A stretch of 64,000 bases of DNA, from contig JBAZJG010000001.1 in assembly GCA_041651455.1 (NCBI GenBank), positions 146,535 to 210,534 of the forward strand. The letters run 5' to 3'. The DNA comes from Candidatus Omnitrophota bacterium (GTDB taxonomy: Bacteria > Omnitrophota > Gorgyraeia > Pluralincolimonadales > Pluralincolimonadaceae). Positions 9,191 through 29,133 of the stretch are shown here, one piece after another; the stretch's first letter is position 1; every line of letters begins with the position of its first letter. The notes below the pieces were generated by a model. The model was not told the DNA's origin. It did no database searches and saw only the letters and a program-made list of their open reading frames with translations. The position numbers were made by a program, and so were the translations under genes.

Positions 9191-9194
9191 AGCG

Positions 9195-9713
9195 ATGAAA
9201 AGACCGGAATCCCACGGAAGCGGCGCATGCAAACGCTCGCAATTCGCGAAGATAGGCAAAGGAGTAGTGATCGAGAAAGGGGCGCTATTCTTCCATCCCG
9301 AGAATATCGAGATAGGGGATAACGTATATGTCGGGCATTACGCGATAATCAAGGGTTACTACAGGAACAGGATGAAGATAGGAAGCGGGACGTGGATAGG
9401 CCAGCAGGCGTTCCTGCACAGCGCTGGCGGCATCACGATCGGCAAAGGCGTGGGGATCGGACCGCATGTCCAGGTCCTGACATCGTCGCACGGAACCGGC
9501 GGCGCCGGGATCCCGGTAATGCGCAATAAGCTGGAATTCGAGCCTGTCATAATAGAGGACGGTTCGGATATCGGCACCGGGGCGGTCATACTGCCGGGAG
9601 TCAGGATCGGCAAGAACGCGATAATAGGCGCGGGAGCGGTGGTCACGAAGGATATCCCGGCATCATCGATCGCCGTCGGGAACCCGGCAAAGGTAATAAA
9701 GAAAAGGAAATGA
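9195..9713 (+). CDS. Hexapeptide-repeat (left-handed beta-helix) sugar O-/N-acetyltransferase
   Basis: Repeated [LIV]G hexapeptides: [47 protein letters not shown]. Confidence 0.7.
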
Positions 9714-10396
9714 AACCCGTCATCTCGGCCATAGTGATGGCATACAACGAGGCGGCGAGCATAGATGACACATGCCGCGAGATACACGGAGAATTATCCC
9801 GCATCGGAGACCCGTTCGAGCTCCTTATCATAGACGACGGCAGCACCGACGGGACGTCCGCGAAGGCCGACGCTATAGCTGTTTCACTGCCGTACTGCAG
9901 GGTCGTGCACCATGCGGTAAATTCGGGGCTCGGGGGCGTATACAGGACGGGCTTCTCGGCTGCAGCAGGTAATTATGTTACGTTCTTCCCGGCCGACGGG
10001 CAATTCCCCGCGGATATAATAGGGAAGTTCAGGCCCATGATGGCCGAATATGACATGGTACTCGGATACCTCCCGGAGAGGAAAGGGCAGGCGTTCGCGA
10101 AATTCCTGTCGAAGGCGGAGAGGTGCCTCTACGCCGCGCTGTTCGGAAAATTGCCGGTATTTCAGGGGGTAATGATGTTCAGGAGGGAACTGCCGGGTAT
10201 GTTCAGGCTGAAGTCATCCGGCAGGGGCTGGGCGGTCGTCATGGAGCTCATAATAAGGGTATCCCGCGCGGGTTTCAGGATAACGAGCGTCCCTACCGGA
10301 TACCGGCCGCGGAAAAGCGGCTCATCGAAGGTAAATAACCCGAGGAATATTATCGCAAACCTTCTCCAGGTCATCGTGCTAAGGTTCAATATATAA
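9710..10396 (+). CDS. GT2 polyprenyl-phosphate glycosyltransferase (DPM1-like, soluble)
   Basis: [11 protein letters not shown]...[12 protein letters not shown]. Short 228-aa DPM1-like architecture. Confidence 0.6.
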
Positions 10397-10397
10397 C

Positions 10398-11933
10398 ATG
10401 AAAAGGACCGTAGCCATAGCGCTGCTGTTGCTGATAAACCTTACGGCGCATTTCATGCCGTTCGAAAGGGCTGCGCTTGCTCCGGATGATTACGCGACGC
10501 TCGTAAGGTCGCTTCCGGCAGCGGAAGGCGGGGCCTCTCCCGTAAAGGCGTATGCCGACAGGCCCCTGAATTACGCGTTTTTGGCCTTTCAGGCAAAAAA
10601 CATAGGCGACAATGCCGGGCTTGCGTTCATCCTGCTGTTCCTGTCCGCCTGCGCGCTCCTGCTTGCCGTATTTATGCTGCTCGAAAGGATATTCGGGGAT
10701 ACAGCTGCGGCTTTCATAGGGGCGGCTGTATTCTGCCTGCTGCCGAACAAGCTTGAGACGTACCATACGCTTATATTCCTTAACATAAATCTCGTATCGC
10801 TTATATACGTCGTGAGTTTCGCGTTATTCATCGCACATGCCGGCACGGGCAGGAGGGGCGTCCTTCTTGCATCAGTGCTGTTGTACGCCGCGGGGATATT
10901 CTGGTACGAAGTGGGATTTTTCATGCCTTTGCTGATGTTATCCTATTGTTTCCTGGACAAGAGATGCAGGCCGGTATCGGTAATGCCTTTCATGGCGGCG
11001 GCGTTGTTTTATGCGGTCTACAGGTTCACGGGGGCTTACGGCATGGCCGCCGGGGCGGAAGGGCAGTCCCATTCCGTCTCATTGACTATGCTGCCGCTCA
11101 ACCTCAAGGAACTGTTCCATCATTATGCCGGCAGGTATGCGGCCCGCAGCGTATTATACGGTTTCTATAATTTCGCGGCTATGCAGACCGTATGGCTTGT
11201 CGCCGTATCGGCGGCGCTGATTGCGCTCATCGTTTCGGTGAGGTCCGCAGTCGCGGGCACTGGAACGCCGGAAATAAAAAAGGGCGTCCTGATGTTCGGG
11301 CTGGCAGCGTTCTTAACCATGATGCTGCCGATATTGTTCAATGACAAGGGAGGGATAGGCGGAAGGCACTTGATTCTTCCGTCGATAGGCGTGTCCATAA
11401 TGGCGGTGCCGGCGCTGATGTATGCGGGCAGGATGTGGAAACACATACTGATAGCGTTCATAGCGGTAATGTCGATCGTGGGAGCGGGGAATGCCTGGAC
11501 GCAGGTGGTCGCCTGCCGGATAAACGGCGCGGTGTTCGGGTATTTTAAGTCGAACATCCCGGCGCTGAGATCCGCAAAGGCCGTGGTAATAGATACGAAC
11601 AGTTTTGCCGAGAAGATCAAGTATACGCTGGTGAAGAGGGATTTCAACCTCTTTAACACATATTACGGCGCGCAGGCTTTCGAGGATTGGGGGCTCATAA
11701 GCATGGTAAGGTGGGCGGCAAAAGACAGAGGGAAAGAAGTATACATATCCATAAGCTCGCCGTATACCAAAAAGGGTGAGGTCAAGTTCTGCGTTTACGA
11801 ATATAAGGGATACCGTTCAAAGGACGTAAAGGACATACGCCTGCCCGCCGATGGGACGTTCGTGGTAGGAGCTAAAGAGGTATTCGGAGGCGATACGGAT
11901 GCAGGCATCAGAAAGCTGGGCATAAGGCAATGA
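10398..11933 (+). CDS. Polytopic membrane protein, GT-C-like glycosyltransferase candidate
   Basis: First-loop APDDYATL acidic motif then ...IGDNAGLAFILLFLSACALLLAVFMLLERIFG. More than 10 hydrophobic helices. C-terminal soluble domain. Confidence 0.45.
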   Translation: MKRTVAIALLLLINLTAHFMPFERAALAPDDYATLVRSLPAAEGGASPVKAYADRPLNYAFLAFQAKNIGDNAGLAFILLFLSACALLLAVFMLLERIFGDTAAAFIGAAVFCLLPNKLETYHTLIFLNINLVSLIYVVSFALFIAHAGTGRRGVLLASVLLYAAGIFWYEVGFFMPLLMLSYCFLDKRCRPVSVMPFMAAALFYAVYRFTGAYGMAAGAEGQSHSVSLTMLPLNLKELFHHYAGRYAARSVLYGFYNFAAMQTVWLVAVSAALIALIVSVRSAVAGTGTPEIKKGVLMFGLAAFLTMMLPILFNDKGGIGGRHLILPSIGVSIMAVPALMYAGRMWKHILIAFIAVMSIVGAGNAWTQVVACRINGAVFGYFKSNIPALRSAKAVVIDTNSFAEKIKYTLVKRDFNLFNTYYGAQAFEDWGLISMVRWAAKDRGKEVYISISSPYTKKGEVKFCVYEYKGYRSKDVKDIRLPADGTFVVGAKEVFGGDTDAGIRKLGIRQ

Positions 11934-13273
11934 AAAGGCTCTCGGTAAGGTTCCTGGCGGTCTGCGTAATGTTCGGCGCGTCGTATCTCATATCGCCGGG
12001 CCTCGCGGTATGCATATTGCTGTCCTCGGTGTTCTTTTACGCGATCCGAAGGAATACGGGCGAAGAGGACAGGAGGTTCGTATTATTCGTCTTATCGGTC
12101 GCTATCCTTATTAGGGCTGCGACACTAATTACGTTACAGTACAAGTGTATCTCGATGAACCAGCTGGATATATTCGGTGACGCGCAGGATAATATAATAC
12201 AGGGGATAAATATCAGCGAGTCCATCAGGCATATAAGGGACATCCCCGTGACGTTCCAATCGATTCTATCTAGCAGGTACAATACGCATTCGATGACCAT
12301 ATTCAACGGTATGTACTTCCTGCTGCTCGGTAACGATATCGTGTCGCTGAAATATATCAATGTGCTGGCGATATGCGCTACGGCTTGGTTGGCATATGAC
12401 ATCGCGAAGAAAATATATTCTTCAACGGCCGGCAGGATAGCGCTTATGATCGTGCTGTTCTGGCCAACGTCATTCCTGTGGTCGGTCACGGACCTTAAGG
12501 AAAGTCACCTGCTTTTCGCTATAACCTGCTCGTTTTGGCTGCTGTACAAGGCGGAAAGTGAAAAGGGAGTGCTCAGGAAGATGGCGTTAACGGGGATGTC
12601 GGTGCTGTTCGCGTCCTATTTCGTGTTATTGAAGGTAAAGCTAATGATGCCTATATTTGTCCTGTCCGTGGCGCTGATAGCATTGCATAGGATATTGTAT
12701 TACGGATTCTCGAAGAACGCTGCCTTGTCAAGGAAAATGCTATATTTATCGGTCATCCCTTTAACGGTCATCTTCATATCGTTCGGCGGATGGATACAGC
12801 AGGCCATCAGGGAAATGTACGCGCTCATAATCCATTATCATATAGGGTTCCTTAACAGCGGCGGGTGGAATATTGACCTGATAGGAGACCAGGCACAGAA
12901 CCATTTTACGATACAATTTATAATTAGTTATATCTCGAAGGCGTGGTTATTTTTCCTTTTTGAACCGCTTCCATGGCACTTTTATTCGTTCTCCCTTATG
13001 GTTACTTACCCGATGATGATCGCATGGTATATCATCGTGGCGTATTCTGTTATCGGTATCGGGAGGATATATTACACGGGAAAAACAAAGAAGATATTTG
13101 CAATGATCGTATTCACGGTTATATATGTCACGGTCGTCGGGATGTCTGTGGCGAATATCGGGACCTTAATACGTTTCAGGGATGTAATTGTACCTATAGT
13201 CGCGGTATTCGCGGGGATAGGGCTGTCAGGGGTGTCGCGGGCGAAGGAGGAGAGATGCAGGAACATACGATAA
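11930..13273 (+). CDS. Polytopic membrane protein, GT-C-like glycosyltransferase or polymerase candidate
   Basis: LDIFGDAQDN loop motif then a hydrophobic core (YFLLLGNDIVSLKYINVLAICATAWLAYDIAKKIY). ~12 predicted helices. Confidence 0.4.
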   Translation: MKRLSVRFLAVCVMFGASYLISPGLAVCILLSSVFFYAIRRNTGEEDRRFVLFVLSVAILIRAATLITLQYKCISMNQLDIFGDAQDNIIQGINISESIRHIRDIPVTFQSILSSRYNTHSMTIFNGMYFLLLGNDIVSLKYINVLAICATAWLAYDIAKKIYSSTAGRIALMIVLFWPTSFLWSVTDLKESHLLFAITCSFWLLYKAESEKGVLRKMALTGMSVLFASYFVLLKVKLMMPIFVLSVALIALHRILYYGFSKNAALSRKMLYLSVIPLTVIFISFGGWIQQAIREMYALIIHYHIGFLNSGGWNIDLIGDQAQNHFTIQFIISYISKAWLFFLFEPLPWHFYSFSLMVTYPMMIAWYIIVAYSVIGIGRIYYTGKTKKIFAMIVFTVIYVTVVGMSVANIGTLIRFRDVIVPIVAVFAGIGLSGVSRAKEERCRNIR

Positions 13274-14706
13274 GGAAGGCCTTGATACCGGCGGCCGGGA
13301 AAGGCATAAGGGCATATCCTAAGAGCAGGTATATTCCGAAGACACTCCTCGAGATAGAAGGAAAACCCCTGATCGAGAATAATATAGCGATATTGAGGGA
13401 CCAGCTAGGGATAAAGGACATTACCGTAATCGTGGGGCACCTTGCCGATAAGATAAAGGCACGGCTCGGGGATGGGAGCCGGCTTGGGGTGTCGGTAAAG
13501 TACGTGGATTGCGGCGATCCCGACGAGGGCCTCGCGAAAGGCATACTGCTGGCAGAGAAGGAGTTCAACGAGCCGTTCATATGTATGCTGGGCGATGAGT
13601 ACTACTTCGGCTCCAACCATTCCGGGCTCGCGAAGATCCCTGCGGATGCCGGCTATGTCTGCGCGGTCAAACATTCGTCCGACATAAAGTCCATCAAGAA
13701 AAATTATAACGTCGAGATAGAGGGCGGGTTCGTCAGCAGGATAATCGAGAAGCCGGCCGAGATCAGGCAATGGAACCTCGGGTGCGGGACATACCTGCTT
13801 AGGCCCGAGATATTCGGCCTGATACGCAGGACAAAGCCGTCCCACAGGAGCCATAAGGTCGAATTCATGGATTCGCTCGACCTCGCCGTGCAGGAAGGCG
13901 CGAAGGTGAAGCCGTACTACCTCGAAGGCATATACTATAACATCAATACCATCGAAGACGTGAACCAGTGCAATTATGATATCCGTTCGCTGAATTTCGG
14001 CAAATACAAGGTAAGCGTCGTGATACCCGCGCATAATGAGGAAGCGACCATAGCTACCGTCATCGAGGACCTGCGGCAGCACGTCGACGAGGTGCTTGTA
14101 GTCAATAACGGCTCGAACGACAGGACCTCCGAGGTCAGCAGGAAGGCCGGCGCGAGAGTCGAGGAGGTCTCGTTGAAGGGCTACGGCGACACTATAAAGC
14201 ACGGCCTCGAAAAGGCGTCCGGCGACATATTCATCGTGACCGAGGCGGATTATTCGTTCCGGTCTAAGGATATAGGCAAGTTCCTCGAGTACATAAAAGA
14301 TGCCGACATGGTCATTGGCACGCGGACGACGCGGCAGCTCGTTGAACAGGGGGCGAACATGAGCCTGATGCTGCTGCTCGGGAACCTTGTATACGCGAAG
14401 ATAGTCGAGATCCTCTGGTGGGGCATCGACCCGCCGCGTTTTACCGATGTCGGCTGCACCTACAGGGCCATTTGGAAGAGCTCTTTCGAGAAGATAAAAG
14501 GCGACCTGAGGTCTACGGGGCCGGAATTTTCCGTCGAGATGATGATAAAGACGCTCAAATACAAACTGCGCGTCCTTGAGATACCGATATCGTATTACCC
14601 GCGCCTCGAAGGCGTATCGAAACATTCGAAGAACTGGTTCGGCATCCTGAGGACCGCCTCGAGGATGATGCGCCTTATAATAAGAGAAAGGCTGGACAAC
14701 AGGTGA
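13255..14706 (+). CDS. Two-domain fusion: an N-terminal sugar-1-phosphate nucleotidyltransferase domain and a C-terminal GT2 (DPM1-like) domain
   Basis: LIPAAGKGIRAYPKSRYIPKTLLEIEGKPLI is the NTP-transferase G-loop. From ~aa 250: VSVVIPAHNEEATI...LVVNNGSNDRTSE...TEADYSF, a GT2 domain. ATG at 13255 with an AAGGAGG RBS. The longer 12973 start is rejected because it overlaps the upstream membrane-protein gene for 300 nt. Confidence 0.6.
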   Translation: MQEHTIRKALIPAAGKGIRAYPKSRYIPKTLLEIEGKPLIENNIAILRDQLGIKDITVIVGHLADKIKARLGDGSRLGVSVKYVDCGDPDEGLAKGILLAEKEFNEPFICMLGDEYYFGSNHSGLAKIPADAGYVCAVKHSSDIKSIKKNYNVEIEGGFVSRIIEKPAEIRQWNLGCGTYLLRPEIFGLIRRTKPSHRSHKVEFMDSLDLAVQEGAKVKPYYLEGIYYNINTIEDVNQCNYDIRSLNFGKYKVSVVIPAHNEEATIATVIEDLRQHVDEVLVVNNGSNDRTSEVSRKAGARVEEVSLKGYGDTIKHGLEKASGDIFIVTEADYSFRSKDIGKFLEYIKDADMVIGTRTTRQLVEQGANMSLMLLLGNLVYAKIVEILWWGIDPPRFTDVGCTYRAIWKSSFEKIKGDLRSTGPEFSVEMMIKTLKYKLRVLEIPISYYPRLEGVSKHSKNWFGILRTASRMMRLIIRERLDNR

Positions 14707-16151
14707 AGCGCGCGATAAGGAAAGCGCTGCTCTGCTATCCGCCGGTGGGGCTGTTCCAGAGGGGCGAGGAGAGGTGCCAGGCGGATATCGAGGGCTCGGC
14801 GACACAGGCGCCTCATGCACCGAACGACCTCGGGTATATCGCAGCGTGCCTCGGGAGGCTCGGGACCGGATGCGTCATAAGGGATTATCCGGCCGAGGGG
14901 ACGACCGAAGAGGCGGTACTGGAAGAGGTAAAGGCATACTCGCCGGACCTTGTGCTTATCAGTACGACTACGCCTACGTTCCCCGAGGATGTCCGGTTCC
15001 TCGAAAAAGTGAAGTCGGCGCTGCCGGGCGCGTTTACCGTCGCGAAGGGAAGCTGTTTCTGCTCGCTTCCTCTGGATGAACTGCGGAAGAGCGAATACAA
15101 GCCGCTCGACGCTGCCATTTACGGGGAAGCCGAGTTCATAATAGAAGACCTTGTGAATGCTCTCGCAGCGGGCGAGCCTATCGACGGCATAAGCGGGATA
15201 ATAGTAAATATAGGCGATAGGGGTGCGGCAAGGACCGCGCGCCCCCAGTTCCGCGAAGACCTCGATTCCCTTCCGTTCCCGGCGAGGGGCCTGATGAATA
15301 ACGGGCTCTACAGGAACCCGCTTACCGGCAGGCCGATGGCTACGATCCTTGTGTCCCGCGGGTGCCCGTCCCAGTGCATATTCTGCCTAACCCCGGTCAT
15401 ATCCGGGCATAAGTTCAGGAAGAGGTCCGTCGGCAACGTCCTCGATGAGATAAGGGATTGCGTCAAGAATTACGGCATCAGGGATTTCTTCTTCCGCGCC
15501 GACACCTTTACCATGGATAATGGATACGTGAAACAGCTGTGCGGCAGGATAATCGGGGAAGGCCTCAAGATAACATGGGTGGCCAACAGCAGGGCCGACG
15601 TCGTGGACAAGGAACTGCTCGCGGTGATGAAAGCGGCGGGATGCGCGCTCGTAGCGTTCGGGTTCGAGTCCGGCAACGAGGATATACAGCGCAAGGTCAA
15701 GAAGAACGCTTCCGCGGATGACGCGCGCCGCGCGGTAAGGTTATGCAAGGAAGCCGGCCTGAAGACACTCGGGTTCTTTATGATAGGTTTCCCTTGGGAC
15801 GACGAGAAGACGGTAGAGGACACGGCCGCTCTCGCAAGGGAGCTCGACTGCGATTTCATAGAAGTGCATATAGCGCTGCCGTTCGAGGGCACGGAGCTTA
15901 ACGACATATGCCGGGACCTCGGGCTAATAAAGGAGACATCGGTCGGGTACAACTATTTCTCCAATCCGTACGGCGGCGGGACACTGCACCTTAGCAGTGA
16001 ACGCCTGGTGCAACTCAGGAAGGATATCATAAAGAGGCAGTACCTGCGGCTGCCGTACATATTCCGCATGCTTACGAACTGCGGCTCTTTTTATGAATTC
16101 ATGAACTATATAAAGTACGGTTTCAGGCTCATCGGAAAGGTCGCGCGTTGA
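14703..16151 (+). CDS. B12-binding-domain radical SAM enzyme (class B; probable cobalamin-dependent methyltransferase)
   Basis: N-terminal B12-binding-like Rossmann domain. CPSQCIFC (CxxxCxxC) radical SAM motif. GTG start overlapping the upstream stop (GTGA). Confidence 0.7.
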   Translation: MKRAIRKALLCYPPVGLFQRGEERCQADIEGSATQAPHAPNDLGYIAACLGRLGTGCVIRDYPAEGTTEEAVLEEVKAYSPDLVLISTTTPTFPEDVRFLEKVKSALPGAFTVAKGSCFCSLPLDELRKSEYKPLDAAIYGEAEFIIEDLVNALAAGEPIDGISGIIVNIGDRGAARTARPQFREDLDSLPFPARGLMNNGLYRNPLTGRPMATILVSRGCPSQCIFCLTPVISGHKFRKRSVGNVLDEIRDCVKNYGIRDFFFRADTFTMDNGYVKQLCGRIIGEGLKITWVANSRADVVDKELLAVMKAAGCALVAFGFESGNEDIQRKVKKNASADDARRAVRLCKEAGLKTLGFFMIGFPWDDEKTVEDTAALARELDCDFIEVHIALPFEGTELNDICRDLGLIKETSVGYNYFSNPYGGGTLHLSSERLVQLRKDIIKRQYLRLPYIFRMLTNCGSFYEFMNYIKYGFRLIGKVAR

Positions 16152-17278
16152 GGAAGATATCGTTACCGGCATATGAGGCCTCGCGCTGCCGCCTGTACGC
16201 GCTGGGCAGGAACGCGATGTATGCCGCGTGCAGGGCCTTCGGCCTGAAGGAGGGCGACGAAATATTGACGCCCGCATTCGATTGCGACGGGTCCCTGCAG
16301 CCGTTCAGGGCGCTCGGGCTGAAACTGAAGTTTTACCGCTCGGACCCGTACACCTTCGAGGCGGATACGGGCGATATGGAGAAAAGGATGGGACCGTCAA
16401 CAAGGATGGTCCACGTAATCAACCATTTCGGGATGCCCCAGCCGTGGGGCAGGATAAAGGGGATCTGCGGGGCCTTAAGGGTCCCTGTCATGGAGGACTG
16501 CGCATATTCGCTGTTCTCAGACGGATTCGGAACGAACGGCGACGCCGCGATATTCTCGCTGAGGAAGAACCTGCCGATGGTAGACGGCGGGATGCTCCGT
16601 ATGAACAACGGAAATTTCGCGCTGGGCCGTCAGGCAGAACGCGCGCCTCTGTTCTACAGGACGGAATCGGCAAATGTCCTGACATTGATCAAATCGGCCA
16701 TGGGATATTATAAGGCGCCCGAAGGGCTCAGGCGTATTCTAAGGAAGGCCAATCCCGCGGTGGAACCTCCTCCGCCTTTGTATTCGGAGAAGGAGAAAGG
16801 GTATCCCGAGTGGCCCCTGCGCGACCATACGGGGGAAGAGTTTAGCTGCGGCTATGAAAGGCCCATCTCCGCGCTGGCGAGGTTCCAGCTGGAAGGCCTG
16901 CCGGAAGGATATTATAAAAATGCCGCGGAGACGAAACGGCGTTATTATTCGGAGCTCGCCGGGAAGTTCGCCGGATTGAACGGGATACGGGTTCTCTGGC
17001 CGGAACTTCCGGAAGGCATAGTCCCTTTTTGCCTTTCCGTATTAATTAACCGGGACAGGGACCGCATTTTCGCGGAATTGAGGAAGAAATATGATGTGAT
17101 GGCCTGGCCGACGCTTTCGCGGGAAGTCATCGACCGGCTTGGCGAATACCCGGAAGTGGAGATCCTCGGCAGGAAGGTCCTGCAGTTCAACCTGTCGGCA
17201 GACAAGGTCATGAGGCGGGATTACCCGCAGTATATAGGCAGGCTCGCGGACGATTTTACCGCGTTAACGGTGAGATAG
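16148..17278 (+). CDS. DegT/DnrJ/EryC1-type PLP-dependent sugar aminotransferase-like protein with a shortened N-terminus
   Basis: GRNAMYAACRAFGLKEGDEILTPAFDCDGSL...LKLKFY matches the DegT GRSAL...GDEVI.P.FTF motif but begins at aa ~18. A possible catalytic Lys is in FSLRKNLP. TTG start (TTGA overlap). Confidence 0.5.
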   Translation: MRKISLPAYEASRCRLYALGRNAMYAACRAFGLKEGDEILTPAFDCDGSLQPFRALGLKLKFYRSDPYTFEADTGDMEKRMGPSTRMVHVINHFGMPQPWGRIKGICGALRVPVMEDCAYSLFSDGFGTNGDAAIFSLRKNLPMVDGGMLRMNNGNFALGRQAERAPLFYRTESANVLTLIKSAMGYYKAPEGLRRILRKANPAVEPPPPLYSEKEKGYPEWPLRDHTGEEFSCGYERPISALARFQLEGLPEGYYKNAAETKRRYYSELAGKFAGLNGIRVLWPELPEGIVPFCLSVLINRDRDRIFAELRKKYDVMAWPTLSREVIDRLGEYPEVEILGRKVLQFNLSADKVMRRDYPQYIGRLADDFTALTVR

Positions 17279-18379
17279 ATGGAATACCGCTGGATCGAGG
17301 ATATAGAGGATTTCAGGAAGATAGCGGGAGAATGGGACATGCTCGCCTCCAGCGGAGACTCGCACCCTTTCCTGCTTTCGGATTTCATAATAACGTGGTG
17401 GAAGTACTTCGGGAAAGGCAAGAAACTCAGGATATTCGTCGTCGAAGAGGGCGGTAAGGTCAAAGGAGGCCTGCCGTTATGCCTGAACAGGGGCGGCGCA
17501 AGGGAGGGTTTCGCGGATTTCCTCCATTACATAGGAGAGGTCGCCGCGAATTACACGGAGCCGCTTTATTCAAACGGGAAGCAGGAGATATTCCCGTTGC
17601 TGGCCCTAGCGCTTTCAGAGAGGAACGACTGGGATGTTTTTTGCCTGACCGATATCAGGGAAGGCAACCGGTTCCTGAAGGAGCTCAAAGGCGCAACGGG
17701 GCAGAAGGGTTGTTCGATATTCCTCATAAGCGACCATATGAACTACGCGATCGACCTTGGCAAGGGGCTTGAAAGCTACCTCTCGTCCTTATCTCCTAAA
17801 CTAAAGAGGGACCTGAGGTCGAAGCGAAAGCATCTCACGCAGAAATGCGGGGCGATAACGCTCGAAAGGGCCTCGGGCGAAAAGGAAGTAGGGGCAAGCG
17901 CCGCCCTTTACAAGGAGTTCTCAAGGGAAGCGTTCGCAGCGAGGAACAGGAAGAGCAATTTCGAGAACGACAAATACGCGGATTTCTTCGGGGAATTCCT
18001 CGTCCTGATGGAAAAGGCCGGCCGTCTGGACGCGCACCTGCTCAAGGCGGGAGATACCGTGCTTGCTATTAGCTTCGCGTACAGGTTCGGCAGGGGTTTC
18101 AACTGGGTCCTTACGGCGTTCGATTACAAATATAAATATTACAGGCCGGGATATATCCTCATAGAGGAATTATTGAAGGAGATATGCGACAGGGGCGAGA
18201 CATATTACAACTGGTACGGGCACGGGCGCTTTTACAAGGACCAGCTCTGCAACCTGCTTGAGCCCCTGTATAAGGTAATGATGGTAAGGAAGACGTTAAA
18301 AGGTTCGTCGTACCTGCTGTCGCAAAAAGCCAAGAAGGCGGTCAAGTACCTGAAAGGGCTGGTCGACGGTGCAAAATAA
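17279..18379 (+). CDS. GNAT-fold acyltransferase of the CelD/BcsL (FemAB-like, Acetyltransf_6) type
   Basis: 366 aa. The C-terminal core LTAFDYKYKYYRPGYILIEELLKEICDRGETYYNWYGHG is typical of this family. Confidence 0.5.
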   Translation: MEYRWIEDIEDFRKIAGEWDMLASSGDSHPFLLSDFIITWWKYFGKGKKLRIFVVEEGGKVKGGLPLCLNRGGAREGFADFLHYIGEVAANYTEPLYSNGKQEIFPLLALALSERNDWDVFCLTDIREGNRFLKELKGATGQKGCSIFLISDHMNYAIDLGKGLESYLSSLSPKLKRDLRSKRKHLTQKCGAITLERASGEKEVGASAALYKEFSREAFAARNRKSNFENDKYADFFGEFLVLMEKAGRLDAHLLKAGDTVLAISFAYRFGRGFNWVLTAFDYKYKYYRPGYILIEELLKEICDRGETYYNWYGHGRFYKDQLCNLLEPLYKVMMVRKTLKGSSYLLSQKAKKAVKYLKGLVDGAK

Positions 18380-19340
18380 CCCGGTACGCCGCCGCCTGCG
18401 CAGGGATTACCATGCGGTGAGGCGCGTCGTCACGCATGTAAAAAATGCGCTTACGGACCCTTCGCCGAAACTCATAGTCCTTACATACCACAGGATATTG
18501 CCTGACTCAGGGCACAATCCGCTTAATACGGCCGTGTCTGAGCGCACCTTCATAAGGCATGTCGAGGGCGTTGCAAGGAAAGCGGGCATAATATCGCTGT
18601 CGGACGCGGCCGAACAGTGCAGGACCGGCCGCATCAAGCGGGCCCTGCAGGCGGTAATAAGCTTTGACGACGGGTATTCGGATAATTACGGGACGGCCTT
18701 CCCGTTATTGAAACGCAAGGGCTTGCCGGCGGTATTCTCCGTTTCGACCGGTTATATCGGCGCAGGCCGCCCGCTGTGGGATTCCGACGTGATAATGAGG
18801 ATAATCCGCGGTAATATAGGCCGCATAGACGCCGGAGGTTTCACTGCCGCAAGAGGCATGCCGGAATCGGCGTGTTCTTTCGCGTTCAGGGTCTTTGATG
18901 AGCTGAAGTCGAAGGACTTCACGGTGATAGGGAAAGTCCTGGAATTCCTGGTGGAGAAGGACCCGGGATACAGCAACGAAGAAGGGCACTGCATGACGTG
19001 GGAGCAGGTAAAGGAACTGTCCGATGCCGGGATGGAGATAGGGTCGCACGCAGTGACCCACAGGTCCCTCGCGAGGATACCTTTCGCTGAAGCGGAGTTC
19101 GAGGTGAACGCAAGCAAGGCCGAGATAGAGAAGAGGACCGGAAGGCGTTGCGCCCATTTCGCGTTCCCATTCGGGAGCGCAAGGGATTATAACGCAGGAC
19201 TGATAGAATGCGTAAAGAAGGCCGGGTACGGGACCTGCCTGCTCAATATACACGGCTACAACAGGATGACCGATGGCGTTTTCGCGCTGAAGAGGGCTAT
19301 AATGGAAGAAGATACGGACGTGAGGTTCATACTTGGCTGA
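18369..19340 (+). CDS. Polysaccharide deacetylase (NodB/CE4 domain)
   Basis: ISFDDGYSDNY...PAVFSV NodB motifs 1-2. HAVTHRSL is the His motif. GTG start. Confidence 0.65.
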   Translation: MQNNPVRRRLRRDYHAVRRVVTHVKNALTDPSPKLIVLTYHRILPDSGHNPLNTAVSERTFIRHVEGVARKAGIISLSDAAEQCRTGRIKRALQAVISFDDGYSDNYGTAFPLLKRKGLPAVFSVSTGYIGAGRPLWDSDVIMRIIRGNIGRIDAGGFTAARGMPESACSFAFRVFDELKSKDFTVIGKVLEFLVEKDPGYSNEEGHCMTWEQVKELSDAGMEIGSHAVTHRSLARIPFAEAEFEVNASKAEIEKRTGRRCAHFAFPFGSARDYNAGLIECVKKAGYGTCLLNIHGYNRMTDGVFALKRAIMEEDTDVRFILG

Positions 19341-20403
19341 AAATATGATGCCGGAAGTGGATGTCATGATCCTGAGCTATCTCCATTACGGAAGGCTTCA
19401 GAAATGCGCCGATTCCGTATTGGCGTCCACCTACCCGAACCTGAAACTGGTCATTGCCGATAACGGATCGGGGCCGAATGTCATCGCTGCCGTAAAGGAG
19501 AGGTATTCAGGGAATCCGAAAGTGGCCATAATAGAGAACAGGGAAAACCTCGGTTACGCCGAAGGCAATAACGTCGCGTTAAGGGCGACCGAAGGCAAAT
19601 ACTGCGTGATCCTCAACAACGACGCGATAGTCGACCGTAACTGGCTCGAGCCGATGGTCGAATATCTCGACAGGAACGCGAAAGCCGGCGCATGCCAGCC
19701 GAAGATACTCGATATAAAGGACCCGCGCAGGTTCGAGCATTCCGGCGCCGCCGGAGGGTACCTGGACAGGTACGGCTATCCGTTCATGAGGGGGAGGCTG
19801 TTCGATACGCTCGAGAACGACGAGGGCCAGTATGACGACCACGCGTCGCTCGACTGGTGCTCCGGGACCGCGTTCATGGCCAGGCGCGAAGTGCTCGGCA
19901 AAGTAGGCCTTTTCGACCCGATATTTTTCATGTATGGCGAAGAGAACGACCTCTGCTGGAGGATAAAGCGCTGCGGATATGACATCGCATTCGTGCCGAG
20001 GTCCAAGGTCTATCACGAGGGCATGGGCTCTATAGGGAAACGCCCGCTTTTCAAGCTGCACCTTAACTACAGGAACAATATAATTCTGCTCATGAAAAAT
20101 CTCAGCATAGCCCAGCTGGCCGTAAGGCTTCCGGTAAGGATGGCGCTGGATGCCGTGAATATCCTGTATTTTATATTCAGTAAACCAATGAGTTTCAGGT
20201 TTGTCAGCATCATCTGGGCTTATTGTGAGCTTGCGATCATGCTGCCTCGCGTAATCAGCGCCAGAATACGCACGCAGCGCCTGTTCCGCGAGCTGGGCAG
20301 CGAAAGCGCCCCTCAATACCCGATGTACCGGATAAGCGTCGTATTCCAGTATTTCCTGATGGGCAGGAAAAAGTTCAGCCAGCTGAAATTAAGGAGAACG
20401 TAA
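19333..20403 (+). CDS. Glycosyltransferase family 2
   Basis: VMILSY...LKLVIADNGSG...ILNNDAIV. DxD region around DRYGYP. TTG at 19333. Alternative ATG at 19345. Confidence 0.7.
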   Translation: MAENMMPEVDVMILSYLHYGRLQKCADSVLASTYPNLKLVIADNGSGPNVIAAVKERYSGNPKVAIIENRENLGYAEGNNVALRATEGKYCVILNNDAIVDRNWLEPMVEYLDRNAKAGACQPKILDIKDPRRFEHSGAAGGYLDRYGYPFMRGRLFDTLENDEGQYDDHASLDWCSGTAFMARREVLGKVGLFDPIFFMYGEENDLCWRIKRCGYDIAFVPRSKVYHEGMGSIGKRPLFKLHLNYRNNIILLMKNLSIAQLAVRLPVRMALDAVNILYFIFSKPMSFRFVSIIWAYCELAIMLPRVISARIRTQRLFRELGSESAPQYPMYRISVVFQYFLMGRKKFSQLKLRRT

Positions 20404-20404
20404 T

Positions 20405-21343
20405 ATGAATACGGGCCTTTCTATCGTTGTCCCGACGTATAACGAGGAAGATTCCATCGTTAAGCTGCATTCAAGGATAAAGGAAGCCCTCCGAGGCAAG
20501 GTAAAATACGAGATCATATTTGTCGATGACGGTAGTACCGACGGGACATACGGGATCCTGGACAAGCTGAACCGCGAAGACCCGGACGTAAAGGCCGTAA
20601 AGCTCTCGAGGAATTTCGGGCATGAGATAGCGACGTCCGCAGGGCTCAGGTATGCATCGGGAGAGGCCGTAGTCGTGATGGACTCCGACCTGCAGCATCC
20701 TCCCGAGACGATAAATGAACTGCTGGAGAAAATGAAGGAAGGTTATGATATCGTCTTCGCGGTGAGGCGCAACAGGGAAGCCGGGTCCGCGCTTAAAAAA
20801 TTCTGCTCGAAGGCCTTCTACGGCGTATTGGGCAGGCTGTCGGAGGTCAAACTGCCGGATGACGTGACGGATTTCATGATACTTAACAGGAAGGCGGTCG
20901 ACGCGTTCCTTAAGCTCAGGGAAAAGAGCCGATTCTTCAGGGCTATGATCTCATGGATGGGCTTCAGGACGGCATTCGTGCCGTTCGAGGAAGGAAAGAG
21001 GAGCAGCGGCAGCTCGAAATACGGCCTGCGTAAGCTCGCGGGCCTCTCGGTTGACGTAGTGACGGGATATTCGATAAAACCGCTGGCGTTCGTTTCGTGG
21101 GCAGGGGCCATAATTTCGGCGGCAAGCTTCGCGCTGCTGCTTTTCTACTTGGTTAAGACGATATTCTACGGCGCGTCCATGCCGGGTTATGCGTCGATGA
21201 TGATAACTATATTGTTCATAGGCGGCATTCAACTGCTGTCTATCGGGATAATAGGACAGTATATCGGCAGGATATACAAGGAGACGCAGAAGAGGCCGTT
21301 ATACCTCGTCGGCAGCCTTATAGGACTGGAAGAAAAGGAATGA
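20405..21343 (+). CDS. GT2 polyprenyl-phosphate hexose synthase (GtrB/ArnC-like, with C-terminal TM helices)
   Basis: LSIVVPTYNEEDSI...[12 protein letters not shown]...KLSRNFGHEIATSAGL...VMDSDLQHPPE. Two C-terminal hydrophobic helices. Confidence 0.7.
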   Translation: MNTGLSIVVPTYNEEDSIVKLHSRIKEALRGKVKYEIIFVDDGSTDGTYGILDKLNREDPDVKAVKLSRNFGHEIATSAGLRYASGEAVVVMDSDLQHPPETINELLEKMKEGYDIVFAVRRNREAGSALKKFCSKAFYGVLGRLSEVKLPDDVTDFMILNRKAVDAFLKLREKSRFFRAMISWMGFRTAFVPFEEGKRSSGSSKYGLRKLAGLSVDVVTGYSIKPLAFVSWAGAIISAASFALLLFYLVKTIFYGASMPGYASMMITILFIGGIQLLSIGIIGQYIGRIYKETQKRPLYLVGSLIGLEEKE

Positions 21344-23055
21344 CGCGTAAGAAGGCCGCCCTGCTATTGGCCGTCGTGATGATGGCGGCATTCCACATCT
21401 CCGCGAGCATTGCGCAGATGTCCAACAAGTTCGACGACGAACCAGCCGCAGGGCCGTTCGGCGGGATACGCCTGCATTACCTGAATGTCCTTAACTTCGA
21501 TTTCTCGCACGGGGTGTCGGCGCAGGATGGCACGTCGCATATACTGGACAATTTCATCAAGTCGGCGGTCAGCGGAACGCACGGGCTCCTTGATTTTGCG
21601 CACTGGTACGCATACGCGGGCATATACGACATGCTCGGGATACCGGTGAACGAGTTCTGGCTTTTGTTCGCGCAGACCGTGGTGATGTTCTGCGGCCTCA
21701 TGTTGATGGCATACGCGGTATACAGGCTCTACGATGATGCAGTAGCGGCGCTGGTATTCCTGGCGATAACGTCCCAGGCGTATGTGCAGCACTCCATCAG
21801 TTTCTATATAATACCGGTGAATACGTTATATGAAGGCCTCTTGCTTCTCTCGATATATTTTTACGACTGGAAGGAGAAGGGGTTTGCGCGGAAAATCCCG
21901 CTGCTCGTGATGTTATTCATAAACTCGGCCTGCGGCAATGTGATAAAAATGCCGGTATACCTGTATTTCGCATGGGCCGCGGCGTATAAACGGGACAATT
22001 ACGGGCCGCTTGGCTCGGCCAGGGAATACTTCGTAAAGAATCCCGCGAACCTGACGCTTGCGGTCCCGGTCATTGCCGCGGCCGTCGCGCACCTCTATGT
22101 ATACAAGAGGATAGGAGAGAGCAACCTGGGGCTTTTGGGCTGGGTCTCGCAGAAGATAGGCATAGGAGCTCCGCTCGTATCGAAATTCGCAGCGATAGGA
22201 AGTTCGCTGAAGAGCATGTTGCTGTCAGGCATGTGGCAGTGGTGGGCGTTTGCAGCCCTTGCGGCATTTTACGCGATAGCCGTAATGCGGGGGAAGAAAC
22301 AAACACCGCTGCTGTTATTTCCCGTCGTATATTACCTGTATCTCATAAATCTTGAGCCGTATTCGGCGATGCTTCCCTACATGATTATTGCGTCTATAGC
22401 GATAGCGCAGGCCTTCAGGATGGCATCCGATAAAACACGGAATGCGGCCGCGAGGTATGCTTCGACAGCGGCAGTCGCGGTCTTTACGGCATACATACTT
22501 TCGGTTTCGGCATCTGCGAACGTGGCTTCCCTCGTTTCGCCGAGGCAACGGTCACCCAATTACCTGAAGAGCGTCGGTTATTACCTTAGGGAGCATATGA
22601 GCAAGGATGATAAGATCGCAAGCTTGCTCGACCAGAGGGAGAACATCCTGAACGAATATTATTACGGAAAGAACTTCTTCAAGAGCCCGGTATTCGGGAA
22701 ATATATCTATGACATGAGGAACATTTCGGAGCCGCCATCTTCAACGAACCCGGTGGCCGAAGGCGAGGCGGACATGGAATTCCCTTTTTATGTCGTATCT
22801 GCGTCGTGTTATAAAAAGGACGCGGGATATGCCTCATTTGTAGATAGGCTCGCAAAGAAATACTCTCTCAAGAAGGTCGCCGATATCGCCTCGGGCGGCA
22901 CCGTCTACGCGTCGGTGTATTCTTCGAGGCCTCTGCAATACGAGAGGTTAGAGGCCGAGAATGCCAATGGGAAATTTGATAGGAAATACGCAAATTTAAA
23001 GAAACTGTTCTACAACAGGCATGTCGGCGTAGCCTCGACCTGGGGGTTCTATTGA
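21340..23055 (+). CDS. Polytopic membrane protein, GT-C-like glycosyltransferase candidate (GtrC/ArnT-type partner of the upstream GtrB-like gene)
   Basis: KFDDEP first-loop acidic motif then ...AYAGIYDMLGIPVNEFWLLFAQTVVMFCGLMLMAYAVYRLY. More than 10 helices and a C-terminal soluble domain. ATGA overlap. Confidence 0.45.
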   Translation: MTRKKAALLLAVVMMAAFHISASIAQMSNKFDDEPAAGPFGGIRLHYLNVLNFDFSHGVSAQDGTSHILDNFIKSAVSGTHGLLDFAHWYAYAGIYDMLGIPVNEFWLLFAQTVVMFCGLMLMAYAVYRLYDDAVAALVFLAITSQAYVQHSISFYIIPVNTLYEGLLLLSIYFYDWKEKGFARKIPLLVMLFINSACGNVIKMPVYLYFAWAAAYKRDNYGPLGSAREYFVKNPANLTLAVPVIAAAVAHLYVYKRIGESNLGLLGWVSQKIGIGAPLVSKFAAIGSSLKSMLLSGMWQWWAFAALAAFYAIAVMRGKKQTPLLLFPVVYYLYLINLEPYSAMLPYMIIASIAIAQAFRMASDKTRNAAARYASTAAVAVFTAYILSVSASANVASLVSPRQRSPNYLKSVGYYLREHMSKDDKIASLLDQRENILNEYYYGKNFFKSPVFGKYIYDMRNISEPPSSTNPVAEGEADMEFPFYVVSASCYKKDAGYASFVDRLAKKYSLKKVADIASGGTVYASVYSSRPLQYERLEAENANGKFDRKYANLKKLFYNRHVGVASTWGFY

Positions 23056-23056
23056 T

Positions 23057-24001
23057 ATGGCTCTGATAAGCGTAGTCATACCCACATACAACAGGGCCGG
23101 TTACCTCAAGGAAGCGGTAGACAGCGTCCTCGCGCAGACGCATAAGGATATCGAGGTGATCGTCGTGGATGACAGTTCCACCGACAGGACAGCGGGTGTA
23201 GCCGCATCGTTCGGAGAAAGGATCAGGTATATACTCCAGGACAACCGTGAGCGAGGAGCGGCAAGGAACAGGGGAATAAAGGATTCAAAAGGTGAGTATG
23301 TCGCGTTCCTTGATTCCGACGACCTTTGGCTGCCGGAGCATCTTGAGTCGTGCCTGTGCGCGTGCGAGTCGTCTGGAGCGGAGGTCTCTTATTCGGGCTC
23401 ATACCTTATAGACGAGTCCGGCGGGACCATAGGAAAGCTTGAGGCGTCATCGTTCGGGAAAGACCCGCTGCGGGAGATGGTCGCAGGTTATTCGTCGCGC
23501 GGATGCAACGCCTCGTCCTGCCTCGTTAATAAGAGCGCGTTCGGGAAGGCGGGATATTTCAGCGAGAAGAGGGAACTCTCCGGATCTGAGGATTGGGAGA
23601 TGTGGGCAAGGCTTGCGTCATGCTGCCGGATGGCCTTTACGGGGGATTATACGGCGAAGGTCAGGTTCCATCCGGGGAAATCATCTATAGTCCCCGAGCG
23701 GATGGCCGGGTCTATGAAGCTTGCGCTGGATATGGCCTTCGGGAACGAAATGCTCGCGCCGAAGATCGAAGGCCTGAAAGGAAAAGCATATTCGCGTCTG
23801 TATACGGTGACCGCCATCAATTATTATGCCGCCGGAAGGATGAAGGACGCAAGGCGATACCTTGCGCTTGCATTGCGGAGCCGCCCGGCTGCGTTAGCCG
23901 AGGATCCTCTCGTGGCATATACATTCCTTAGGAGTATTCTCGGAGCGCGTGCGGCAACGGCGCTCAGGAATGCGAAATGGGGGACGGACAAACGGGCATG
24001 A
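23057..24001 (+). CDS. Glycosyltransferase family 2
   Basis: ISVVIPTYNRAGYL...VIVVDDSSTDRT...VAFLDSDDLW. Confidence 0.7.
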   Translation: MALISVVIPTYNRAGYLKEAVDSVLAQTHKDIEVIVVDDSSTDRTAGVAASFGERIRYILQDNRERGAARNRGIKDSKGEYVAFLDSDDLWLPEHLESCLCACESSGAEVSYSGSYLIDESGGTIGKLEASSFGKDPLREMVAGYSSRGCNASSCLVNKSAFGKAGYFSEKRELSGSEDWEMWARLASCCRMAFTGDYTAKVRFHPGKSSIVPERMAGSMKLALDMAFGNEMLAPKIEGLKGKAYSRLYTVTAINYYAAGRMKDARRYLALALRSRPAALAEDPLVAYTFLRSILGARAATALRNAKWGTDKRA

Positions 24002-29121: not shown

Positions 29122-29133
29122 GTGAGGGTAAAA

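Follow-up and report, generated by a model that had tools for sequence, protein, structure and literature searches.

A HpnJ-like radical SAM enzyme beside a putative sugar-tailoring gene trio in a surface-glycan locus of a probable Omnitrophota bacterium

The 64,000-nucleotide stretch of contig JBAZJG010000001.1 analysed here as a whole, hereafter the window, encodes at 14703-19340 four consecutive plus-strand genes, whose products comprise (i) an HpnJ-like radical S-adenosylmethionine (SAM) enzyme with a B12-binding domain, hereafter rSAM, (ii) a short DegT-type pyridoxal phosphate (PLP) enzyme, probably a sugar aminotransferase, (iii) a FemX-like acyltransferase built as a tandem of Gcn5-related N-acetyltransferase (GNAT) domains, and (iv) a cytoplasmic de-N-acetylase of carbohydrate esterase family 4 (CE4, NodB-homology). 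The last three genes are referred to as the trio, and directly upstream of the rSAM gene lies a fusion of a sugar-1-phosphate nucleotidyltransferase with a family 2 glycosyltransferase (GT2) (Table 1). The host is probably an uncultured bacterium of the Omnitrophota; near-identical relatives (87-91%; L001, P0002, P0005 and P0242, where labels of the type L001 denote fetched relative loci compared with the window) carry the conflicting names Planctomycetia, Omnitrophica/Omnitrophota or Dehalococcoidales in their sources, so that some of these labels of metagenome-assembled genomes (MAGs) must be wrong.

The open reading frames (ORFs) that the initial annotation had called as four consecutive genes were recovered at exactly the same coordinates and strand, and its four domain assignments were all upheld by Pfam; domains were assigned throughout by Pfam and NCBIfam profile searches with curated cut-offs, and structures were compared by means of AlphaFold models and Foldseek. 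Full-length homologues, with identities of up to 91-97%, exist for all four proteins, which are therefore genuine gene products rather than chance ORFs, and all four are taken to be cytoplasmic because hydrophobic segments are absent. The genes had been described as all overlapping, by 4-11 nt, which holds for two junctions, the rSAM stop codon overlapping the DegT-like start (4 nt) and the acyltransferase gene overlapping that of CE4 (11 nt), whereas the DegT-like and acyltransferase genes merely abut, with zero overlap and TAG followed by ATG; the CE4 gene in turn overlaps the next GT2 gene by 8 nt.

The surrounding gene content agrees with the earlier placement of these genes in a glycan locus. 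The four genes stand inside a tightly packed array of 17 plus-strand genes (9710-30978), surrounded by a surface-glycan locus of ~43 kb that runs to about 42.7 kb and is of the lipopolysaccharide (LPS)/O-antigen type. The locus comprises (i) a 6-deoxyhexose pathway (nucleotidyltransferase, 4,6-dehydratase, cupin and RmlD-like reductase), (ii) many GT2 and GT4 glycosyltransferases, (iii) an AsnB-type amidotransferase, (iv) a WecA/MraY-type initiating transferase, (v) a Wzy_C/O-antigen-ligase-like protein, and (vi) two GT9 heptosyltransferases, and is followed downstream by the housekeeping genes UDG, PriA, Def and Fmt. Promoter and terminator scans aimed at the operon limits returned counts at the level of shuffled sequence, so that operon structure is deduced from gene packing.

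Table 1. Genes of the surface-glycan locus considered in the text, with coordinates in the window; the fusion and the four genes under study are given first
Feature	Coordinates	Strand	Length	Remarks
Sugar-1-phosphate nucleotidyltransferase + GT2 fusion	13255-14706	+	483 aa	
B12-domain radical SAM (rSAM), HpnJ-like	14703-16151	+	482 aa	
Short DegT-type PLP enzyme, probable sugar aminotransferase	16148-17278	+	376 aa	trio gene 1
FemX-like tandem-GNAT acyltransferase (Pfam Acetyltransf_6)	17279-18379	+	366 aa	trio gene 2
Cytoplasmic CE4 (NodB-homology) de-N-acetylase	18369-19340	+	323 aa	trio gene 3
Transglutaminase-core + tetratricopeptide repeat protein	5260-6408			
13-segment membrane protein	6405-8234			PMT_2 17.4 bits vs cut-off 26.1
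Protein without family match	8282-9259	-	325 aa	
Small GT2 resembling AglJ/PpgS	9710-10396	+		Pfam, NCBIfam, below cut-off
Polytopic membrane protein	10398-11933	+		9 hydrophobic segments
Polytopic membrane protein	11930-13273	+		about 9-12 hydrophobic segments; PMT_2 20.3 bits vs cut-off 26.1
GT2	19333-20403	+		Pfam, NCBIfam
ArnC/PgfS-like membrane-anchored GT2	20405-21343	+		PgfS 281.5 bits, ArnC 191.2 bits, both below cut-off (ArnC cut-off 529)
Polytopic membrane protein	21340-23055	+		
GT2	23057-24001	+		Pfam, NCBIfam

The ORF of the fusion, when called mechanically, begins at 12973 and so shares 300 nt with the membrane-protein gene before it; almost certainly, translation begins instead at the ATG at 13255, behind an AAGGAGG ribosome-binding site. 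The fusion is not one of the four genes of the initial annotation and falls outside the coordinates given there. The protein matches NTP_transferase (54.9 bits) and Glycos_transf_2 (74.2 bits), the nearest NCBIfam models to the nucleotidyltransferase half being AglF/Arch_glmU, and those to the GT2 half AglJ (102.6 bits), dolichyl-phosphate hexose transferase and PpgS, all below their cut-offs. The same applies to the GT2 domains at 13255-14706, 9710-10396 and 20405-21343 taken together, for which AglJ, PpgS, PgfS or ArnC are the nearest families, in each case under the cut-off.

The rSAM enzyme comprises a Radical_SAM domain (PF04055, 86.1 bits, cut-off 29.5), with a CxxxCxxC motif (C221/C225/C228) that is invariant in the family alignment, and a B12-binding domain (PF02310) with a marginal score (35.4 bits, cut-off 32.1) that spans positions 13-120 of the 121 in the profile; no transmembrane segment was found in it. 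Since the B12-binding domain is present, if marginally, the profile search does not turn the protein into the generic rSAM that would have refuted the initial annotation; many homologues carry no precomputed match to this domain, and the N-terminal domain is highly conserved. The best NCBIfam model, HpnJ (TIGR03471), aligns over the full length with 211.3 bits and does not reach its cut-off of 577.6, followed by BchE (142 bits) and AprD4 (120 bits, cut-off 500), with models of methylases or putative methylases scoring lower (PhpK 111, methyl-coenzyme M reductase (MCR) glutamine methylase 108, HpnR 86, TsrM 65 and KedN5 24 bits). The closest solved relative is AprD4 (PDB code 6fd2, 101.7 bits), aligned through residues 178-412, the core only.

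HpnJ and BchE are established or proposed non-methylases, and a published similarity network groups HpnJ with two methylases, Fom3 and MoeK5 (PMC9204698). Among the class-B rSAMs that have been characterised, methylases form the majority; AprD4, a dehydratase, binds no cobalamin, and AprD4 and ArsL relatives sit in the similarity network of B12-rSAMs without binding it (PMC12931638). Because AprD4 shares that network, a match to the B12-binding domain is no proof of B12 use, and because the network includes non-binders and the nearest families are non-methylases, a class-B assignment does not make the enzyme a C-methylase. The earlier description as a class-B (cobalamin-binding) rSAM thus stands for the motif and the domain, but is weakened for cobalamin itself by the marginal domain score and the AprD4-like relatives that do without it. 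The C-methylation then proposed relied on the class-B majority rule and is not supported by the comparison, none of the nearest curated families (HpnJ, BchE and AprD4) being a methylase; judged from the sequence, C-methylation by the window enzyme is possible, given the grouping of HpnJ with Fom3 and MoeK5, but not favoured. HpnJ-type ring contraction was rejected as the reaction on chemical grounds, because a polyprenyl-phosphate sugar altered in this way would no longer serve as a glycosyl donor.

The DegT-like protein matches DegT_DnrJ_EryC1 (PF01041) with 53.5 bits (cut-off 19.8) over profile positions 49-191 of 360 only, and lacks ~45-60 N-terminal residues compared with solved DegT enzymes, its residues 6-24 aligning with chain residues 50-66. 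The gene cannot be extended upstream, there being no start codon between 16148 and the preceding in-frame stop, and the TTG at 16148 coincides in position with the ATG start in L086. The N-truncation recorded earlier is a real property of a coherent family of proteins of 360-400 aa and not damage to the gene. Across 20 family members there is no variation at K140, which aligns with the Schiff-base lysine of TlmJ, or at D117, the aspartate partner of the PLP ring nitrogen, and the family displays motifs of its own (PAFDCDG, INHFGMPQPW and PPPLYSD). The AlphaFold model (predicted local distance difference test, pLDDT, 89.8) superposes over its whole length on sugar aminotransferases, with Foldseek template modelling (TM) scores of 0.60-0.67, and the protein is, on this model, most simply read as an active aminotransferase of a distinct subfamily.

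The acyltransferase matches Acetyltransf_6 (PF13480) with 67.2 bits and FemAB (PF02388) with 15.3 bits, below the cut-off of 24; some sources name its homologues 'CelD/BcsL family', and the PEP-CTERM-associated FemAB family was rejected, no NCBIfam match being obtained. Its confident AlphaFold model (pLDDT 91.3) discloses a tandem GNAT fold that two methods place closest to FemX, FemA and MprF, with a clear gap to the acetyl-CoA GNATs. Aminoacyl-tRNA is the donor for every one of the closest structural relatives, among them an enzyme that aminoacylates an amino sugar; Sbb17 and its functional homologue Orf11 use Gly-tRNA to aminoacylate the amine of an amino sugar, and catalysis of the FemX type hinges on a single lysine (PMC12945691). 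The C-terminal GNAT domain contains an invariant lysine, K320, a candidate counterpart of FemX K305. A residue-level alignment with solved FemX members was sought by phmmer, which found no match, and with a 29-sequence profile, which returned only spurious TLR2 hits; the protein has no sequence match in the PDB. Relatives of the FemX/MprF type make a sugar amine the likelier acceptor, and an aminoacyl rather than an acetyl group the likelier cargo. The initial annotation had spoken of a GNAT acting on either a sugar or a peptide: the GNAT assignment is refined to a FemX/MprF-type tandem, and of the two acceptors the sugar amine is favoured. From the modelled fold, the enzyme probably transfers an aminoacyl group to a sugar amine. 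Two loci display a tandem duplication of this gene (L002:12938-15287 and L124:10595-12901), which by analogy with FemA/FemB could provide for the stepwise addition of two amino acids.

The CE4 protein matches Polysacc_deac_1 (PF01522) with 72.4 bits, and its Asp-Asp motif (D100 and D101) and metal histidines (H227 and H231) are invariant in 15 orthologues. Its PDB matches are enzymes of the IcaB/PgaB type; the PgaB model aligns with 65.8 bits (cut-off 321.9) over its first 102 positions only, and the HfsH model with 19.7 bits, whereas the PEP-CTERM-associated deacetylase families and ArnD were tried and rejected, giving no NCBIfam match. Unlike the secreted polymer deacetylases of the PgaB/IcaB type, the protein shows no signal peptide, hydrophobic N-terminal segment or transmembrane segment, and without an export signal it should act on a precursor at the cytoplasmic face, as NodB, HfsH and ArnD do.

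Comparison with relatives separates the four genes into two groups. For the rSAM family, 80 genome loci were fetched, each with a family alignment, and neighbourhoods were counted over 79; for the DegT-like family, 38 metagenome loci were fetched with a family alignment, in addition to individual contigs. The fusion, rSAM, DegT-like, acyltransferase and CE4 genes are all present in L001 (91%), L002 (64%), L088 (62%) and L123 (64%), and L124 (62%) displays a variant without the fusion, with a TylF-type methyltransferase between rSAM and the DegT-like gene and two tandem acyltransferase genes. All four genes occur together only in this one Omnitrophota-like clade, so that the conserved block assumed earlier exists inside it (L001, L002, L088, L123 and L124) but is split elsewhere. 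In L086, whose DegT-like protein is 85% identical, the second membrane protein is followed directly by the DegT-like gene, fusion and rSAM both being absent, and L112 (56%) is arranged in the same way, the order in both being membrane protein, DegT-like, acyltransferase, CE4, GT2 and GT2. The fusion and rSAM are inserted at the same place in the window, L001, L002, L088 and L123. The pattern of L086 and L112 indicates that gain or loss affects fusion and rSAM jointly and without regard to the trio, and the fusion also stands upstream of rSAM in L003, besides L001, L002, L088 and L123.

Conversely, the trio is found in the same order and without rSAM, down to ~40% identity, in L083, L084, L090, L096, L097, L108, L109, L112 and L116. 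The DegT-like gene is followed by the acyltransferase gene in 21 of the 31 loci with enough downstream sequence, and CE4 follows in ~14, being less constant than the other two trio genes; the rSAM family, in turn, occurs without the trio in 76 of 79 genome loci. Genes for an RmlA-like transferase, a 4,6-dehydratase, a cupin, an RmlD-like reductase and a GT2 regularly precede the trio. The single module of the initial annotation therefore does not hold, since rSAM co-varies with the fusion and is missing from L086 and L112, which keep the trio. As an explanation of the whole, we hold with moderate confidence that rSAM belongs functionally with the upstream fusion and that the trio is a separate, portable cassette; the earlier interpretation is thereby supported in part, the module resolving into two cassettes.

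The neighbourhoods of the rSAM family as a whole point to lipid-linked sugars. A gene for a polyprenyl-phosphate-sugar synthase, of the UbiA or the GT2 type, lies within four genes of rSAM in 43 of the 79 loci. The UbiA-family gene accounts for 29 of 79, usually directly upstream, and scores 206.5 bits with NF008977 (decaprenyl-phosphate phosphoribosyltransferase), just under the cut-off of 234; AglJ/PgfS/ArnC-like GT2 genes are found in 15 of 79, one locus having both types. These associations are spread over at least four separate clades of a neighbour-joining tree of the rSAM family, and because the UbiA and GT2 folds are unrelated and their donors differ (phosphoribosyl pyrophosphate, PRPP, versus a nucleoside diphosphate (NDP)-sugar), the feature they share is the polyprenyl-phosphate monosaccharide product. 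Other neighbours comprise a sugar-1-phosphate nucleotidyltransferase (19 of 79), a second rSAM paralogue (14) and a large polytopic membrane protein (11), with PMT_2 proteins of the GT-C fold, short-chain dehydrogenases/reductases (SDRs) and methyltransferases in a minority of loci. In L045 (a Halarcobacter MAG, 7602-12328) the order is UbiA-type phosphoribosyltransferase, GtrA-like protein (weak match), rSAM, SDR and PMT_2-like protein, and L068, from the cultured Diplocloster agilis, comprises UbiA, rSAM, a PgfS-like GT2 and, next to the latter, a significant PMT_2 GT-C. Orthologues of the small GT2 of the window (9710-10396) lie directly upstream of rSAM in L043 and L057. The family appears to be an uncharacterised and widespread one tied to lipid-linked sugars, and from the same associations we infer that the window rSAM acts on a lipid-linked sugar made by the adjacent fusion. 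A literature search for an rSAM linked to polyprenyl-phosphate sugars, and for the trio, found nothing.

Three observations on the wider family may be recorded in their own right. The array of L045 resembles the mycobacterial arabinose-donor pathway, with rSAM and SDR in place of DprE1/DprE2. Eight loci from Clostridia MAGs (L046, L052, L065, L067, L070, L076, L079 and L080) contain a tandem pair of rSAM paralogues, with a gene for a 620-aa polytopic membrane protein to one side and genes for a PgfS-like GT2 and a nucleotidyltransferase to the other, a conserved five-gene unit of gut Clostridia. Two contigs binned as Nanoarchaeota (L040 and L061) encode rSAM relatives of 43% identity, which reflects either a family that crosses domains or mis-binning.

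From the genes, domains, catalytic residues, fold similarities and patterns of presence, absence and neighbourhood described above, we infer every substrate and reaction of the following scheme, in which two functional cassettes lie side by side, and which we consider about evenly balanced between right and wrong in the form proposed. In the first cassette, the fusion would activate a sugar 1-phosphate and load the sugar onto polyprenyl phosphate at the cytoplasmic face of the membrane; the soluble HpnJ-like rSAM would then remodel the lipid-linked sugar by radical chemistry, with (i) oxidation or dehydration to a keto sugar, (ii) epimerisation, (iii) deoxygenation, and (iv) C-methylation as candidate reactions, and the modified sugar would be flipped across the membrane to decorate a glycan. 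In the second, the DegT-type PLP enzyme would turn a keto sugar, most simply an NDP-4-keto-6-deoxyhexose from the dehydratase pathway of the same locus, into an amino sugar; the FemX-like enzyme would move an amino acid from aminoacyl-tRNA onto the sugar amine, and the cytoplasmic CE4 enzyme would strip an N-acetyl group from the precursor, freeing a second amine or tuning charge. The earlier idea of an aminotransferase combined with an acyl-transfer/deacylation pair on an amino sugar is retained in this scheme as a reasonable reading, but with rSAM set apart and a cargo that is probably aminoacyl.

Several observations weigh against the two-cassette scheme. On the side of the lipid-linked sugar, the GT2 half of the fusion lies below every curated cut-off, 36 of the 79 rSAM loci have no lipid-sugar synthase nearby (about eight of them cut by contig ends), and a search of these 36 for a common neighbour yielded none that is informative, the commonest being a second rSAM (8) and CTP_transf_1 (6). 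No UbiA-type gene was found in the window, and no flippase was identified there, GtrA-type and other flippases not having been searched for in it; its polytopic membrane proteins gave only sub-threshold PMT_2 matches in a relaxed-threshold Pfam search and are no more than candidate GT-C enzymes, and hhalign comparison of these proteins with the Clostridia GT-C-like family and with each other gave probabilities below 2%. On the side of the trio, a FemX-like fold is not proof of aminoacyl-tRNA use. As regards the separation itself, L124 keeps rSAM near the trio without the fusion, so that the pairing of rSAM and fusion is not absolute; in the clade of the window (L001, L002, L088 and L123) rSAM sits directly upstream of the DegT-like gene; and B12-type rSAMs of two other subfamilies adjoin DegT-like genes in L081 (HpnJ-like, 189 bits) and L100 (Sden_1168-like, 286 bits). 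The latter, independent recruitment hints at a functional link between rSAM and trio that two cassettes underplay, and rSAM may supply or further modify the sugar of the aminotransferase, with some interplay between the two.

Such a link is central to the initial annotation, which posited a single pathway, with a B12-dependent rSAM C-methylating the amino sugar of the trio to give a C-methylated, N-acylated amino sugar. A B12-binding domain above the Pfam cut-off, the methylase majority among class-B enzymes and the clustering of HpnJ with Fom3 and with MoeK5, an enzyme that methylates a lipid-linked sugar, are all in keeping with it, as are the 4-nt overlap of rSAM and the DegT-like gene, their adjacency in four relatives (with a methyltransferase gene between them in L124) and the recruitments of L081 and L100. 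We nevertheless regard this single pathway as unlikely, since the top curated matches are non-methylases, AprD4 being a dehydratase without cobalamin, the domain score is marginal and has no precomputed counterpart in many homologues, and the two parts are mostly found apart, the trio lacking rSAM in most loci, including a close relative, and rSAM lacking the trio in nearly all of its own.

Alternatively, rSAM could supply the keto group, oxidising or dehydrating a hydroxyl of the lipid-linked sugar in the manner of a radical dehydrogenase or of AprD4, with a partner that resolves the keto intermediate: in some lineages an SDR, giving an epimer or deoxy sugar as an anaerobic counterpart of DprE1/DprE2, and in the clade of the window the DegT-like enzyme, giving an amino sugar on the lipid carrier. 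AprD4 as the closest solved relative, the overlapping stop and start codons, and the arrangement in L045, where an SDR comes immediately after rSAM, the pair lying between a UbiA-type synthase and a PMT_2-like protein, are consistent with this proposal, and the missing canonical N-terminal segment of the DegT-like enzyme could reflect a substrate other than a nucleotide sugar. An SDR lies near rSAM in ~6 of the 42 associated loci, and also in Brocadia and Omnitrophota loci, a frequency at which it was rejected as a general partner, so that the DprE1/E2-like idea stays a minority hypothesis; moreover, the DegT-like gene mostly occurs without rSAM, beside a 4,6-dehydratase pathway that already gives keto sugars. 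We assign keto supply by rSAM a small probability. Equally improbable to us is that the adjacency has no functional meaning, the locus being a hypervariable one with shuffled cassettes in which rSAM acts on something unconnected with its neighbours, for example the polyprenyl lipid or some other lipid, and an acetyl-CoA-dependent acyltransferase and CE4 tune the acetylation of a GlcNAc polymer, as proposed for HfsK/HfsH. Cassette presence and absence do vary between close relatives, LPS and capsule loci of Omnitrophota are described as hypervariable (bioRxiv 10.64898/2026.06.07.730766), several B12-type rSAMs modify isoprenoid lipids (PMC13459092), and a FemX-like protein and a cytoplasmic CE4 act on one polysaccharide in the HfsK/HfsH case (PMC5362036), to which the 36 rSAM loci with uninformative contexts may be added. 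Against this stand the association of rSAM, in no fewer than four clades, with sugar-lipid synthases whose two folds are unrelated, a pattern that chance hardly accounts for, the tighter pairing of the acyltransferase with the DegT-like gene (21 loci) than with CE4 (~14), and the large structural gap that separates aminoacyl-tRNA enzymes from acetyl-CoA GNATs.

The two-cassette scheme has partial precedents. AprD4 works together with the reductase AprD3, and HpnK belongs to another family than CE4. In the HpnI/HpnK/HpnJ pathway of the hopanoid side chain (Burkholderia and Methylobacterium), a GT2 loads an N-acetyl-hexosamine on the lipid and a deacetylase exposes its amine, after which the lipid-linked sugar is remodelled by a B12-domain rSAM (PMC13459092, PMC9204698), HpnJ acting on lipid-linked glucosamine after the GT2 and the deacetylase (PMC13459092). 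The window likewise has a GT2, a deacetylase and an rSAM that best matches HpnJ, but the rSAM score is far under the HpnJ cut-off, no hopanoid genes are found among the annotated genes of the window, and the chemistry is probably different. Three-component glycosylation systems comprise a UbiA-type polyprenyl phosphoribofuranose synthase, a phosphatase and a GT-C, in addition to ORF13 or DprE1/DprE2, cytoplasmic SDR and DprE1/E2 epimerases serving there as auxiliary enzymes that remodel polyprenyl-phosphate sugars before export (PMC11127046). By adjoining UbiA/GT2 synthases, GtrA-like and PMT_2/GT-C proteins the rSAM family occupies the position of such an auxiliary; the known auxiliaries, however, are SDR or FAD/SDR epimerases, and in the searchable literature no rSAM is described as holding that role. 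AprD4, of the apramycin pathway, acts on an amino sugar and is the closest solved structure by sequence, but it differs in the core-only match, in not binding cobalamin (PMC12931638) and in that no reductase gene is adjacent in the window.

For the trio, FemX/FemA/FemB and Orf11 (Sba18/Sbb17) share the fold, but their sequence similarity to the acyltransferase is undetectable, and they serve peptidoglycan or antibiotic synthesis where the window gene belongs to a surface-glycan locus. By analogy, HfsK/HfsH of the Caulobacter holdfast is the closest functional precedent for an acyltransferase and CE4 in a polysaccharide pathway: a soluble FemX-like GNAT, described as a 'putative acyltransferase', and a cytoplasmic CE4 act on one polysaccharide precursor, and HfsK homologues are linked to exopolysaccharide loci across phyla (PMC5362036); HfsK, which is under c-di-GMP control through its C-terminus, differs in that no DegT-like partner has been described for it. 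The Arn pathway (ArnB, ArnA, ArnC, ArnD and ArnT) follows the same logic, that is, a DegT aminotransferase, N-acyl protection, a GT2 transferring the sugar onto undecaprenyl phosphate, a CE4-type deacylase on the lipid-linked sugar and a GT-C, and the GT2 at 20405-21343 scores 191 bits with ArnC. There is no orthology, however: ArnC remains under its cut-off of 529, CE4 has no ArnD match, ArnA is absent, and the acyltransferase is FemX-like instead of a formyltransferase.

Beyond the genes under study, the block at 19333-24001 follows the trio with its order kept in L001, L085, L086, L088 and L112. Three genes at 5260-9259 stand between the 6-deoxyhexose genes and the rest of the window locus, and in L081 and L116 the deoxyhexose genes adjoin the trio on its upstream side or are separated from it by a single membrane-protein gene. 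A GT4 fused to a DUF218 domain (29122-30978, 618 aa) is kept close to the trio in both L081 and L090. In L123 (1-4213), the module is preceded by genes for an AMP-binding acyl ligase, a small carrier protein (weak PP-binding match) and a cyclase-family protein, which suggests an additional acyl substituent on the glycan of that lineage. GC skew is positive in every 2-kb bin of the window (1-64000) and nearly all genes lie on the plus strand, which fits a position of the entire window within a single replication arm, as leading strand.

The proposed chemistry is in kind ordinary glycan tailoring, involving two uncharacterised subfamilies and a widespread rSAM family, and for annotation the lesson is to split the 'module', rSAM going with the upstream fusion and the trio standing apart. 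In a screen by pattern and tblastn, 559 species genomes passed, and we tentatively propose that the HpnJ-like rSAM family, present in at least 559 species-level genomes of many phyla, mostly anaerobes, is an unrecognised auxiliary of polyprenyl-phosphate glycosylation that remodels the lipid-linked monosaccharide before export, alongside a FemX-like, tRNA-dependent aminoacylation of surface-glycan amino sugars. Remodelling of this type could correspond to the epimerisation by DprE1/DprE2, but without dependence on oxygen or flavin, or could consist in C-methylation or deoxygenation of the sugar on its lipid carrier. To our knowledge, the biosynthesis of the amino-acid substituents long known on O-antigen amino sugars is largely unassigned, and FemX-like aminoacylation, if true, would identify an enzyme for them. 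The rSAM proposal, if true, would bring a new class of enzyme into the extracytoplasmic decoration of glycans from lipid-linked monosaccharides, a pathway type recognised as general only of late, and would explain the diversification of donors in strict anaerobes without flavin or oxygen-linked oxidases.

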